IMG/VR virus record: IMGVR_UViG_3300012274_000057
Span: 1 to 64,000 of that record
Length of the DNA stretch: 64,000 bases
Source: an uncultured virus (IMG/VR IMGVR_UViG_3300012274_000057)
Taxonomy: Duplodnaviria; Heunggongvirae; Uroviricota; Caudoviricetes
Direction: 5' to 3' (one strand)
The stretch's first letter is position 1; each line of letters begins with the position of its first letter. Positions 48,489-56,831 of the stretch are shown here, piece after piece. The position numbers and the translations under genes were made by a program. Under the pieces are notes generated by a model. That model saw nothing but the letters and a program-made list of their open reading frames with translations, made no database searches and was not told the DNA's origin.

Positions 48489-48947
48489 ATGAAGAAAAAA
48501 GTAAATGTGTATCCAACTATACCAATAATGGGAACTAATCCACCAATACTGGGAATTACTTATGCAACAGAATTATCTATAGGAGATATATCACTATGTA
48601 TATTTGCAAGAGCTAAAGTAGAGGAGATCCTTAAAAATGGCGAAATACTGCCTTTAAATTTATCAAATTATGATAAGGATAATAATAAAGATATAGTTGT
48701 CGAAAAAGTTAAACAAGAGGAAACTATTCCAGAACCTATCTTTATACCTAAACAAAAAGAGGAAATAAAGATAGAAGAAGAGATTAAACAATCTGTAGAA
48801 GAAGACAATACAGTTTCTATTGAAACCAAAGATATCCCTGAAGAAGAAATGATTGTTTCTAATAAAGAAGAATCAATTGATACTGGGGCAGAACAAATTA
48901 ATTCAGTACAAAGGAATAACAAATCAAATTATAAAAAAAATAGATAA
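48489..48947 (+). CDS. Hypothetical late protein
   Basis: 152 aa, folded N-terminus and Glu-rich tail, SD aggagg. Confidence 0.7.
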   Translation: MKKKVNVYPTIPIMGTNPPILGITYATELSIGDISLCIFARAKVEEILKNGEILPLNLSNYDKDNNKDIVVEKVKQEETIPEPIFIPKQKEEIKIEEEIKQSVEEDNTVSIETKDIPEEEMIVSNKEESIDTGAEQINSVQRNNKSNYKKNR

Positions 48948-48959
48948 TTATAATATTAT

Positions 48960-49515
48960 ATAGATAGAGGCTTGAAACCTCTATCTATATAAACTTTATT
49001 TTTTCAGGTCTTACTTTGACTGACCATAGTTTCTATTACTTCTAACTCTCCCCTTAGAAAATAATAGAAACAAATATGTTGTTAGTTTAGTAGTTATATT
49101 ATCACATTTCTTATAAGAAATAAGTACTATCTCTTTTTATTCAAACTACTATTATACTTAATGCTACAATTATGTGTTCACTCATTTATTTCATATGTTT
49201 TCATAAGAGGTTTATCCATTATTCGTTTCCTACTGCTGAGAAATCGTCCATGGTATCACCTCTTTCCACTGTTCTTCTACTTAATCACGAAAGAGAAATG
49301 ATTAAGTTTTTTCTTTAGTACGTAAAAAATTCTTTATCAATTTTATCATATGTTTTCACCCCCTCTAAATTAGTTGTACTTAGAAGGGTATACTCATGTT
49401 TCTGCTGTTAAAAAGCGATAGACCAAATCTATCATCACCTCCTTAGACTTGATATAGTAACTATGATCAGTCATTTATTCGGTTTTTATTACTTTAATAA
49501 GCATTCTGTATTCGT
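48960..49515 (-). ncRNA. Candidate large structured RNA / minigene transcript
   Basis: Own early promoter (49520-49551, minus strand), no ORF of 60 aa or more, 15 bp end-to-end stem, several hairpins, terminator hairpin 48958-48990. Confidence 0.6.
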
Positions 49516-49581
49516 GATTATAATATATAATTATAAAAGTCAATTTTTACAAAGTAGAGAGAAGAGTATATACTCTTCTCT

Positions 49582-51234
49582 CTAATATTCTGGCTCTGAT
49601 AATTTTGTTCCAGGTAGAATTAGTGTCATATTATATAAACTTTGTATAGCTTCTTTAGAAGATTGTCTTATATTTTTTCCTCCTAAGTTAATATAATGAG
49701 CTTTAGAATTCATAAATCTGTCCAATTCATCATTTGCTTCTATACTATATGCTACTTTACAGGTTACTTGGTCACCATCATAATCTCCTCCTATAGCATC
49801 TAAATAACAATTACAGATATTCATTGTGTCTACAAATTTATTACTAGTATTTGATCCGATATCTTTTTCCCTTATTTTTGGATAATGTTTATAAAATATA
49901 TTATCTACAAACATGGGTTCTGTTTCTTTTGTAGAAGAAACTACAATTTTAGTAGGAAATTGTCCAAAGTAATTATCTAAGGGATATCTTGTGATAAGTG
50001 CATGTTTATCTTTAGAACAATCAACTGCAGCCATAAATATCAAATCACACCATGTCAATCTTCTCGATAGTAGTGGAGTGTTACCTGGCTGTGTTTCGTT
50101 TGGCTTTTCAGATAATTTACCAACATCTTGAGAATCAGTATATCGACCCTTAAATGACATACTTAATAGTTTATTCTCTTCTGTTTCTACTTCAACAGGA
50201 ATAAATCTATTAGAGTAACCGTACATAAATCTTTCTATTTCTTTTTTTATTCTCGTATCTGAAAATTGTATTAACGGATCTTTTGCTTTAACAAATCTAA
50301 TATTTCCTTCTTTATTTCTAACAGGAAATTCAGATGTTCCCGAGAATTGATTTTCAAAAAACCTTCTTATCCAGAAAATTATATAAGGAAATAAGTTAGC
50401 ACATACAGATGCTAAAGGAACAGCAGAATGATCTAAGTCGACCATTAAATCTTCTAATCTTTCTACTTTAAGCTCTGGTGCTGATAATACAAGTCTTGAA
50501 GCATAGTCGGAAGTTTTAGCCATTACAGATCTTTTAATGATACCTGGTTTACCTGCAAGACCTGAACCTGAATTCTCAGTACCTTTAGTAAACCAATTAT
50601 ACAATTGTAAAAGTATCTCCTGTATTCGCCCGTTAGTTGCATCGGACATTTGTAATCCATAATCTGCTGTCTCTTTAAGTGCTCTAACTGCGATTAATAA
50701 TGAGTCATATAATTTATTAACTTCACCTACACCTATATATCCTCTATCAGAATTGACATCTCTATAGTATGCTGGAATTACAATCCATTTTCGTATAAAC
50801 ATATTGTGTTTATACCTATCTAAAAAATCTATTTTATCGTCCCTCTTTGTAGAATCAGTAGATTTTATTTTTATTTTATCCATATTATTTTTTAAGAATT
50901 TTATTCCAGTACTACCATTTTCATCTTCTACTAATTGTCCAGATGCATCTATTTTAAATTTATTTGTCCCATGAACTATTTGTCTTATTTTCTTATCCAT
51001 ACCGACCCATATTTTATATGTGTATGGATGAATAAACCAGTCTGATAGATCTATATATCCAAATATACCAGCCCTGTCATCTTTACTTATACCAAATATT
51101 TCATTAGATAATAAACCGTCTGATGTAGGAACACCATCTCTTATAAAAAATATAGGATTTGTGATTTCCTGCAGTTCATTTATTTTAACTAATTTATCTG
51201 GATCTAATAAATCGAATTTTAAATGTTTTTCCAT
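49582..51234 (-). CDS. RNA polymerase beta' subunit with catalytic loop, probably of the virion RNAP
   Basis: GLLSNEIFG, FGYIDL, VIPAYYRD, TRYP and GGDYDGDQ (DxDGD); late promoter at 51254-51265. Confidence 0.9.
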   Translation of the reverse strand: MEKHLKFDLLDPDKLVKINELQEITNPIFFIRDGVPTSDGLLSNEIFGISKDDRAGIFGYIDLSDWFIHPYTYKIWVGMDKKIRQIVHGTNKFKIDASGQLVEDENGSTGIKFLKNNMDKIKIKSTDSTKRDDKIDFLDRYKHNMFIRKWIVIPAYYRDVNSDRGYIGVGEVNKLYDSLLIAVRALKETADYGLQMSDATNGRIQEILLQLYNWFTKGTENSGSGLAGKPGIIKRSVMAKTSDYASRLVLSAPELKVERLEDLMVDLDHSAVPLASVCANLFPYIIFWIRRFFENQFSGTSEFPVRNKEGNIRFVKAKDPLIQFSDTRIKKEIERFMYGYSNRFIPVEVETEENKLLSMSFKGRYTDSQDVGKLSEKPNETQPGNTPLLSRRLTWCDLIFMAAVDCSKDKHALITRYPLDNYFGQFPTKIVVSSTKETEPMFVDNIFYKHYPKIREKDIGSNTSNKFVDTMNICNCYLDAIGGDYDGDQVTCKVAYSIEANDELDRFMNSKAHYINLGGKNIRQSSKEAIQSLYNMTLILPGTKLSEPEY

Positions 51235-56344: not shown

Positions 56345-56448
56345 AGATTCATTCTCTAGTTTTTTCTCTATGTAAAAATTAGAATATATAATTATATATT
56401 ATATATAGGAATAGTTGATAGTAATCTATTGCAAGTATAAAATTTAGT

Positions 56449-56605
56449 TAAGATATTAATTATACCATAAAAAAGTTTATCTCCCTCGTATATCGTGCAT
56501 AAAAAATATATTGTAGATTGAACTTATTTGGAATATCGTGATATCTACTAGGTATAGTTAATTTATCTTATTGAAGGGAGACCAAGGAATCTCCCTTCAT
56601 TTATA
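56449..56605 (+). ncRNA. Candidate small RNA unit 1
   Basis: taagatattaattatacc (56449-56466) pairs with ggtatagttaatttatctta (56551-56570), followed by hairpin 56572-56599; early promoter at 56392. Confidence 0.6.
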
Positions 56606-56618
56606 TTTTTAATTAGCC

Positions 56619-56747
56619 AAGATATTAATTATATTTCTATACTACCCCGATAAGCCTATGCCTCTTATAAACACCGTTCATAATATCTGTATAGAGATTA
56701 ATAATTAATTTATCTTATAAGAGAGGTGTCTCCTCTCTTTATTTTTT
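56619..56747 (+). ncRNA. Candidate small RNA unit 2
   Basis: aagatattaattat (56619-56632) pairs with ataattaatttatctt (56701-56716), followed by terminator 56719-56747. Confidence 0.6.
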
Positions 56748-56831
56748 ATATAAATACATTTTAAAATTATTTTTAACTATATATTATAGATATGTATAAC
56801 AATAAAAATAATTTTTAAGGAGAGATTAATT

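Follow-up and report, generated by a model that had tools for sequence, protein, structure and literature searches.

A candidate early micro-ORF gene with a very strong Shine-Dalgarno site in an AR9-like jumbo phage

This study concerns a 634-bp gap (positions 48948-49581) in a 64,000-nt stretch of DNA, here called the window, which is the first 64 kb of the 230,112-bp virus record IMGVR_UViG_3300012274_000057 (estimated completeness 93%, G+C ~26%). Judged by its genes, including those for RNA polymerase (RNAP) and virion proteins, the phage is a jumbo-phage relative of the AR9/PBS1 group. The gap separates two convergent genes, one for a protein of 152 amino acids (aa) and the other for the N-terminal piece of a split RNAP beta' subunit (beta'-N), and it is the largest stretch of the genome without genes; two stretches that are larger or similar on the crude gene map, 189731-190972 and 134171-134705, contain open reading frames (ORFs). 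A promoter, a Shine-Dalgarno (SD) sequence, a micro-ORF and a terminator are conserved at this syntenic site in relatives. We favour the reading, holding it with about as much belief as doubt, that the gap carries a stand-alone early micro-ORF gene within a self-contained early transcription unit, the selected core of which would be an extended, very strong SD (GAGGTGAT type) followed by the 10-codon acidic ORF MDDFSAVGNE. An earlier note, made from the letters of the window alone, had pictured here a large structured non-coding RNA (ncRNA) acting as a sponge, or else a transcript for several micropeptides.

In the model that we propose, the virion RNA polymerase (vRNAP) would initiate at G 49513 on the minus strand shortly after infection, the SD would draw ribosomes very efficiently and the micro-ORF would be translated, and transcription would stop at the terminator at 48956-48992. 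The output might be the ~10-residue peptide itself, or perhaps the loading of ribosomes and the act of translation on this RNA. The cassette, ~145-300 nt in relatives, would have grown to ~560 nt here, apparently via tandem duplication; a decayed upstream copy would explain the first SD and the first mini-ORF, and the added local hairpins together with a 15-bp closing helix probably stabilise the RNA. The anatomy of the unit, the strength of its SD and the conservation of its parts are plain from the DNA; that it is transcribed, translated and functional we infer.

Results

A cassette shared by diverged relatives

A locus search with beta'-N, or with an alignment of the window and the locus labelled L006, found no match in viral or genome contigs and one (L006) in metagenome contigs. 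A scan of IMG/VR with the back-translated motif GGDYDGDQ gave at least 80 loci, 76 of which match beta'-N among the matches listed, and it brought in relatives that the locus search had missed. The best 32 loci, with 44-61% beta'-N identity and including near-duplicates (among them L082=L046 and L066=L032), were analysed.

In L006, whose beta'-N is ~60% identical to that of the window, the syntenic gap measures 324 bp and has the same promoter core with a G start, a terminator and no long ORF. Together with L006 and the window, 5 of the best 32 loci (L041, L021, L082/L046 and L072) have an early-promoter core, a very strong SD and a tiny ORF after beta'-N; the SD energies of the relatives' micro-ORFs run from -8.7 to -17.4 kcal/mol, and the beta'-N proteins of the carriers are 48-70% identical. 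Terminators follow in L041, L021, L082 and L006. From promoter to terminator the cassette measures about 145-560 nt over five diverged lineages, and its shared core is a strong SD and an acidic ORF of 9-12 codons; the whole unit is only ~145-150 nt in L021 and L082, with little left besides the micro-ORF. The AATTATATATTAT promoter core is retained in four of six cassettes (the window, L006, L041 and L021), with unalignable flanks, and extended GGTGA pairing of the SD in five of six.

What the homologous loci have in common is the SD with its micro-ORF and not the RNA body. Beyond the promoter, the RNAs of the window and L006 are unalignable (153 of 300 shuffles score equally in local alignment), and a MAFFT alignment and codon-aligned view of the cassettes, judged by eye and unscored, places the shared positions in the SD, the spacer and the ORF, with no likeness 5' of the SD or 3' of the stop. 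The large structured sponge RNA first suggested for this gap finds no support in that form: its body is unconserved, its length varies between ~145 and 560 nt and its second and third SDs are predicted to be buried in stems.

With the gap as query, a distant-mode blastn search of 50,697 phage records gave no match, and the phage's own genome holds no paralogue of it except promoter-like matches. A promoter-plus-leader DNA pattern had no match in viral contigs and three in genome contigs, these being unrelated bacterial sequence of metagenome-assembled genomes without beta'-N. Of 20 loci met in viral contigs by an SD-plus-micro-ORF DNA pattern, one alone is a member, L105, which shares its contig with L041; the remaining 19 matched by chance within longer ORFs on GC-richer contigs.

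The conserved micro-ORF

The short frames of the gap, and the counterparts of the conserved one in relatives, are as follows.

49219-49251, minus strand: conserved micro-ORF, MDDFSAVGNE plus stop, the sole element in common with relatives
L041: micro-ORF peptide MDDNQTMGWEED
L082: micro-ORF peptide MDNETVGYDD, with a GTG start
L006: micro-ORF peptide MGDNEGCGG
L021: micro-ORF peptide MGETIGVRH
L072, a possible orthologue: 24-aa frame starting MYNDYEEYDD
49394-49435, minus strand: mini-ORF 1, 13 codons from ATG 49435 or 10 from TTG 49426, without counterpart in relatives
49302-49349, minus strand: mini-ORF 2, MIKLIKNFLRTKEKT, 15 codons, the first of them inside copy 1 of a 22-nt repeat
49178-49219, minus strand: mini-ORF 4, MDKPLMKTYEINE, which overlaps the stop of the micro-ORF by way of TAATG and is not conserved among relatives

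As had been remarked, the gap has no long ORF: none exceeds 15 codons on the transcribed strand, and no minus-strand ORF reaches 30 aa. Stops in the three minus frames number 24, 25 and 16, a density like that of random sequence of equal composition. The four mini-ORFs had been located correctly and read as a possible micropeptide transcript, which is supported for one of them, MDDFSAVGNE, conserved with a strong SD at the equivalent site of four further diverged lineages, but not for the other three, which either have random-expected lengths (mean 10.6 codons) or lie within a degenerate duplicate. Mini-ORF 1 is probably a decayed paralogue of the conserved micro-ORF; L021 has a block resembling mini-ORF 2 (GTGAAACATTTGATAAAAAT) upstream of its micro-ORF.

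The peptides were compared by BLOSUM62 global scores, the null being the genome's 1633 other micro-ORFs that begin with ATG and have 8-13 codons. The score of window against L041 (20) and that of L041 against L082 (30) were each reached by none of the 1633, and the scores of the window peptide against four relatives sum to 50, while no null frame exceeds 38. Position 8 is always glycine, its codon varying between GGA and GGC, and L041 and L082, the one pair with a clear bias to third positions, differ at 2, 1 and 6 sites in codon positions 1, 2 and 3.

Some other coding possibilities were considered and rejected. The micro-ORF is not a detached tail of beta'-N, no such sequence occurring in 11 beta'-N C-termini; the plus-strand ORFs of 40-48 aa have no SD at or below -8 kcal/mol; and every minus-strand frame contains all three stop codons, so that recoding one stop in an alternative genetic code would open nothing.

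Shine-Dalgarno sites of exceptional strength

Both strands of the 230 kb were scanned in 12-mers against a generic 16S 3' tail, which may not be that of the host.

49434-49444, minus strand: SD1, AAGGAGGTGAT, -17.6 kcal/mol, the genome's strongest anti-SD-complementary site, with an 11-nt match
49357-49366, minus strand: SD2, AGAGGGGGTG, -16.7 kcal/mol, rank 3 in the genome
49255-49265, minus strand: SD3, AAAGAGGTGAT, -12.7 kcal/mol, 7 nt before the micro-ORF ATG at 49251

Of the 66 genome sites that reach -12 kcal/mol, the 516-nt RNA has three, those of ranks 1 and 3 among them, and only 8 of 9184 sliding windows hold at least three such sites; the central observation of the earlier note, a cluster of near-perfect SDs, is therefore real and far from chance. 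Other top sites of the scan are mostly ribosome-binding sites of real genes. The context of SD3, GGTGAT(A)YC, is common to L041 and L082. SD1 lies 70 nt from the predicted 5' end, and its start options are an ATG just 2 nt past the GGAGG core and a TTG in a 3-nt hairpin loop. In the predicted ensemble the unpaired probability of the core is 0.39 for SD1 and 0.13 for SD2. Three cultured relatives (180-251 kb) have no analogous SD cluster, the motif RGGAGGTGAW occurring 0, 0 and 2 times.

An AR9-type early promoter

49514-49551, minus strand: AR9-type early (vRNAP) promoter, with upstream TGTAAAAAT at 49551-49543, core AATTATATATTAT at 49532-49520 and spacer AATCAC
49513, minus strand: predicted transcription start, G at +1, placed by the AR9 rule of core, N6 and G(+1)

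The early consensus of AR9, AAATATATATTAT-N6-G+1, was defined experimentally and is read by the virion RNAP, according to the available part of the AR9 report (Lavysh et al. 2017, PMC5312081). The gap matches it, with the 10-nt core TATATATTAT at 49529-49520, N6 and G(+1) at 49513. That the gap has its own early minus-strand promoter, as proposed before, is borne out in this form and not in that of a sigma-70 promoter: the TTGACT/TATAAT pair has a 15-nt spacer and is absent from the output of a sigma-70 scan. Genome-wide, AATTATATATTAT-N6-G recurs upstream of genes with SD and ATG. Intergenic sites that combine the exact 10-nt core and a G at +17 number 31, and 25 of them have an SD+ATG ORF of at least 40 codons within 100 nt; the six without one include 49513. 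The window unit resembles the AR9 early units in its AT-rich core ending in TATATATTAT, the six bases and the G at +1, and differs from them in that the AR9 transcription start sites (TSSs), in the same portion of that report, front annotated genes, whereas the window unit has no ORF above 15 codons and has C at -1.

The AR9 late motif, AACA-N6-T[AG], is 5.8-fold denser at -80 to -10 upstream of genes across the genome, with at least one upstream of 82 of 236 crude gene calls, and both AR9 promoter classes thus appear, on motif evidence, to be present in this phage. Late promoters within the gap were considered and rejected, the two matches (TSS 49389 and 49167) against ~0.55 expected not being significant.

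We record some further features of the early promoters. No proper gene lies downstream of the exact-core sites at which the base at -1 is not T (49513, 56409, 103845, 44334, 141943 and 170530). A subset of early promoters, for example those on the plus strand of the window with TSS 26067, 32500 and 53772, has an upstream TGTAAAAGT element ~38 nt before the start, and the same subset shares a leader, GTATAAAAAGTTTGTAAGTAnCTTTnTATA, able to form a 5' hairpin. An exact early core with G(+1) at ~150748 on the plus strand is directly followed by a hairpin, GGGTAGGATTAATCCTACCC, and there is no gene on that strand for ~15 kb.

Fold of the RNA and its terminator

From G 49513 the predicted RNA is ~560 nt long, and its composition is A 41%, G 17% and C 11%.

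49459-49473, minus strand: 5' arm of the closing helix
49017-49031, minus strand: 3' arm of the closing helix
49360-49388, minus strand: hairpin A, CCCUUCUAAGU with AUUUAGAGGGG, pair probability 0.92, sequestering SD2
49279-49307, minus strand: hairpin B, ACUUAAUCAU with GUGAUUAAGU, pair probability 0.90
49205-49264, minus strand: hairpin C, AAGAGGU/ACCUCUU and CCAU/AUGG, pair probability 0.89-0.98
49088-49151, minus strand: 3' domain D, stem UAGUAGUU/AACUACUA around two small hairpins
49032-49068, minus strand: hairpin E, its loop showing GGGGAGAG (49053-49046) with unpaired probability 0.93
48956-48992, both strands: bidirectional intrinsic terminator of 17 and 15 pairs, shared with the convergent 152-aa gene

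The ends of the RNA had been said to pair over 15 bp, and they do: 49473-49459 with 49031-49017, including one U-G that is A-C on the plus strand. The predicted pair probability of this helix is 0.96 and its duplex energy -20.8 kcal/mol; none of 300 shuffles attained such an energy, and among 300 random genome windows two did. The named hairpins are also present in the predicted fold (49388-49360, 49307-49279, 49264-49205 and 49068-49032, mean pair probabilities 0.81-0.92), and hairpin C is predicted to enclose the entire conserved micro-ORF and to bury the SD3 core. The terminator stood up as well, being scored on both strands in a scan with two sites against 0.3 expected. The description as a structured RNA fits the helix and the local hairpins, but as a whole the RNA folds with an energy that stands out only moderately: with the terminator left off, z against shuffles is -3.5 for the minus and -2.5 for the plus strand, and the GC-corrected energy is equalled or bettered by 31 of 400 random genome windows.

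An internal duplication

49116-49449, minus strand: putative internal tandem duplication, RNA positions 65-220 aligning with 244-398
49337-49358 (copy 1) and 49182-49203 (copy 2), minus strand: 22-nt direct repeat

The 13-nt direct repeat pointed out before is genuine and belongs to a longer one, of 22 nt with 86% identity. The tandem-duplication alignment is in accord with the direct repeats D2, D3 and D5; SD1 and its context resemble SD3 (16 nt, 81%), with a 22-nt block after each copy. In the upstream copy the SD-ATG spacer is lost and the frame is different. The leader from the TSS to the conserved ATG is 262 nt in the window, against 22-116 nt in relatives. The simplest reading of these features is apparently an old tandem duplication of the basic cassette, the upstream copy of which decayed, and on the predicted fold the SD-studded look would stem from hairpins in which purine-rich, SD-like arms are paired to CCUCUU-type arms. 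L041 has a long, hairpin-rich 3' part that is unrelated to that of the window, from which it seems that variable structured tails are tolerated or favoured.

Discussion

The most specific form of the reading proposed here is a dedicated gene whose product is a peptide of 9-12 residues, which has a vRNAP early promoter and a terminator to itself and the strongest ribosome-binding sites of the genome, acts in the first minutes of infection and is kept in an uncultured AR9-like clade; this form we put forward only tentatively, leaning somewhat to doubt. If it is true, few stand-alone genes known from any phage would be as small. A real peptide would offer a tiny, easily synthesised handle on an early step in which phages with transcription machinery of their own take over the host. 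If, on the other hand, the act of translation matters rather than the peptide, we would be dealing with a new ribosome-loading RNA device of a phage that brings its own RNA polymerase. Frames of ~10 codons are discarded by gene callers and small-ORF surveys, and a conserved micro-gene of this kind would be invisible in jumbo-phage annotations. The inflation of a 150-nt cassette to what appears as an ornate 560-nt ncRNA is also a caution for phage ncRNA calls made from a single sequence.

Phages do carry minigenes of another kind: the lambda bar minigenes, of two to a few codons, act through peptidyl-tRNA drop-off. The window shares with them a phage-borne SD and a very short ORF without obvious protein product, the sort of element to which the earlier note gave the name minigene, but its frames have 9-15 codons, its peptide is loosely conserved and it has a dedicated promoter and terminator; by frame length we reject a bar-type minigene. 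The yrzI operon of B. subtilis codes for as many as four peptides of small size, as stated in the available text of PMC12067863, and operons of that type resemble the window as there described in having a short transcript on which there is at least one tiny ORF and every such ORF has a separate SD. They differ from it in that the conserved ORF of the window has only 9-12 codons and only one of its four frames is conserved. For phiKZ, early proteins that target ribosomes have been reported, as summarised in the accessible portion of PMC13282480; an RNA that loads ribosomes would be their RNA-based counterpart.

Several observations weigh against a stand-alone micro-ORF gene. The 49513 promoter has C at -1, whereas 27 of 27 gene-linked early promoters have T (elsewhere the base is C in L006 and T in L041), and its position weight matrix score is 21.5, where the training set goes no lower than 24.5; once positions -3 to -1 are dropped it scores 26.2, inside the 21.9-36.7 range. 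Given this C and the low score, the promoter may be weak or used differently. The predicted fold pairs the SD3 core fully (unpaired probability 0.00) and the micro-ORF start codon largely (0.32). Conservation of the peptide is loose, with 47 non-synonymous against 11 synonymous codon changes over all pairs, and the score of window against L021 alone is not significant (reached by 202 of 1633). The codon periodicity is weak (35, 32 and 42 differences at positions 1, 2 and 3 over 75 pairwise codons), and with this and with gaps placed by hand in the codon alignment, selection at the peptide level is suggested and not proven. The duplication signal is modest, its local alignment score of 56 being reached by 8 of 500 mononucleotide shuffles. 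The cassette is absent from relatives with the same synteny (L084; L066/L032) and from those with other genes in the slot, and it is therefore dispensable. Lastly, we know of no phage precedent for a functional stand-alone peptide of 9-12 residues.

Let us then consider what else the gap might be. The alternative that survives best, unlikely as we take it to be, is a non-coding ribosome-binding RNA, in which binding to the 16S 3' end or the 30S subunit is selected and the short ORFs are incidental; its purpose might be protection from 5'-to-3' decay, in the manner of STAB-SD or hbs, or early titration of ribosomes. The clustering of the genome's strongest and third-strongest sites here (8 of 9184 windows with at least three) would suit such an RNA, as would the four sites at or below -8 kcal/mol in ~290 nt of L006, against three in 1461 nt of coding sequence, and the retention of extended GGTGA pairing in five of six cassettes with a peptide only loosely conserved. 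Mini-ORF lengths equal to the random expectation of 10.6 codons and an SD1 without usable start, which may be STAB-SD-like, point the same way. In the accessible parts of the sources, the STAB-SD of B. thuringiensis cry3A mRNA (PMC4113751) stabilises the mRNA for a normal protein, and the B. subtilis hbs mRNA (PMC5737220) combines a strong SD with protection involving the 5' and 3' untranslated regions, which the closing helix and strong SD of the window parallel. Both resemble the window in an SD-like 5' sequence with long 16S 3' complementarity and in 5'-3' RNA pairing, but they have a normal protein downstream as described there, and the window has none, its conserved site being provided with a start codon and a short frame. 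What is conserved also includes a start codon, 9-12 codons of open frame and likeness of the peptides, which a site for 16S binding alone would not require; moreover, SD2 and SD3 are predicted to be mostly buried in stems, the minimal cassettes of L021 and L082 have a single site, too few for a sponge, and the phage itself requires the ribosomes that would be titrated. Strong ribosome recruitment as the selected property stays, in our view, a live idea.

We consider it decidedly unlikely that the gap is the leftover of a variable accessory-gene slot, a decaying spacer with orphan signals from which the cargo was lost. The slot after beta'-N is indeed hypervariable, with unrelated co-oriented ORFs in L058, L060/L071, L025, L079, L081, L059, L093 and others, some of them behind an early promoter core, and with almost no spacer in L084; homing endonucleases were rejected as an identity for such slot genes, with no Pfam family in the five proteins tested. 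The RNA body that cannot be aligned with that of L006, the promoter that deviates at the otherwise invariant -1 and a random-like stop density in all frames would also be expected of a remnant. However, no residual similarity to a lost gene was found: tblastn with 18 slot proteins of relatives against the gap had no match under E 0.01, the lowest value being 0.016 with a tiny database, and we reject a decayed protein gene on the same footing, the six frames, read through their stops with X, giving no Pfam match and one PHROG match at E 0.19. Neutral decay would erase the core, SD, start and 9-12-codon frame, which persist in five lineages with beta'-N identities of 48-70%, and the SDs are not weakened but are the strongest of the genome.

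A cis-acting leader peptide, whose translation would control folding or termination and hence antisense read-through into the convergent late structural genes, we regard as highly unlikely. Regulatory leader or arrest peptides such as the cat/erm leaders and TnaC resemble the window in their very short constrained ORF, structured RNA and nearby terminator, but the window unit controls no downstream gene, and no alternative pairing of terminator and antiterminator was found in it. The unit always faces the 3' ends of convergent virion genes with the terminator between, hairpin C encloses the micro-ORF of the window, and in L021 and L082 the terminator follows ~15-25 nt past the stop. Against this, stop and terminator lie ~230 nt apart in the window and ~170 nt apart in L041, the local hairpins vary by phage, and the terminators are strong and bidirectional. 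AR9 itself, in the part of PMC5312081 that is available, produces antisense RNAs to several genes.

For a replication-origin or R-loop primer transcript we see a remote chance. An untranslated, purine-rich early RNA of ~560 nt with G clusters might recall ColE1 RNA II or the origin transcripts of T4 and T7, but the site lies between convergent genes without a switch in strand bias, a strong terminator closes the RNA, the units of relatives are only ~145 nt long, and no iterons or AT-rich unwinding element were noted in the gap.

A known RNA family (ROOL, GOLLD, 6S, tmRNA or a riboswitch), a self-splicing intron or a CsrA sponge deserves next to no credence: size (~560 nt), a closed multi-hairpin architecture and a phage-borne location are all that the window has in common with ROOL, GOLLD and CsrB-type sponges, from which it differs in having no covariance-model match, conserved RNA body or GGA enrichment. 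Rfam 15 gave no match at gathering score in the 64-kb window, and below threshold, with E allowed to rise to 10, only 10 matches in 48800-49700, of which the strongest has 21.8 bits against a gathering score of 37; with ARAGORN neither the window nor the whole genome gave a tRNA or tmRNA. The suggested CsrA sponge is argued against by motif counts without enrichment (GGA 6 against 6.8 expected, ANGGA 3 against 2.8), and the gap is not an intron of the beta'-N gene, since that gene ends where its homologues end.

Neighbouring genes and further observations

49582-51234, minus strand: beta'-N RNAP gene, the upstream neighbour and synteny anchor, 550 aa, DYDGD motif, phrog_2986 E 2.1e-82
49555-49584, minus strand: perfect 15+15 palindrome, the 3' hairpin of the beta'-N gene, overlapping its stop codon
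48489-48947, plus strand: convergent 152-aa protein, function unassigned, synteny kept in relatives

By its sequence the ORF at 49582-51234 is the N-terminal piece of the split beta' subunit of a multisubunit RNA polymerase, ~33-35% identical to its homologues in Listeria phage LPJP1, Bacillus phages Goe21 and AR9 and Staphylococcus jumbo phages. A terminator-like hairpin lies at the equivalent 3' position of beta'-N in L021. The 152-aa neighbour shows 51% identity over 69 aa with that of L006 and has tblastn matches in L021, L041, L066, L082 and L084; a head-tail joining protein (PF24214) is among the plus-strand genes left of the gap.

The tblastn match to beta'-N ends near residue 420-427 of 550 in AR9, PBS1, MarsHill, LY01 and AH12 and extends to residue 537 in Goe21, BpSp and LPJP1, which would fit a gene that is interrupted, by an intron or a split, in the former group.

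On the opposite strand of the slot in L066/L032 (oriented 3456-3316) there is a 46-aa ORF, MKSARFYYDDDCPWYDDDDPNCEDGELNDPFSDGELDIYVCEDLGY, with 16 acidic and 8 aromatic (Tyr/Trp-rich) residues, preceded by GGAGGTGATT (-15.6 kcal/mol). Its aromatic and acidic runs recall the C-termini of the micro-ORF peptides (GYDD, GWEED) and the 24-aa frame of L072; it could be a functional analogue or a coincidence.

56345-56831, plus strand: second ORF-less early unit, with upstream TGTAAAAAT, exact core, G at 56409 and G at -1

This second unit has no plus-strand ORF of at least 20 aa, strong SD site or Rfam match, and its fold z is -3.1. It consists of two tandem units of ~150-190 nt, each closed by AAGATATTAATTATA...TTAATTTATCTTAT pairing and each ending in its own terminator-like hairpin, at 56573-56600 and 56722-56740.

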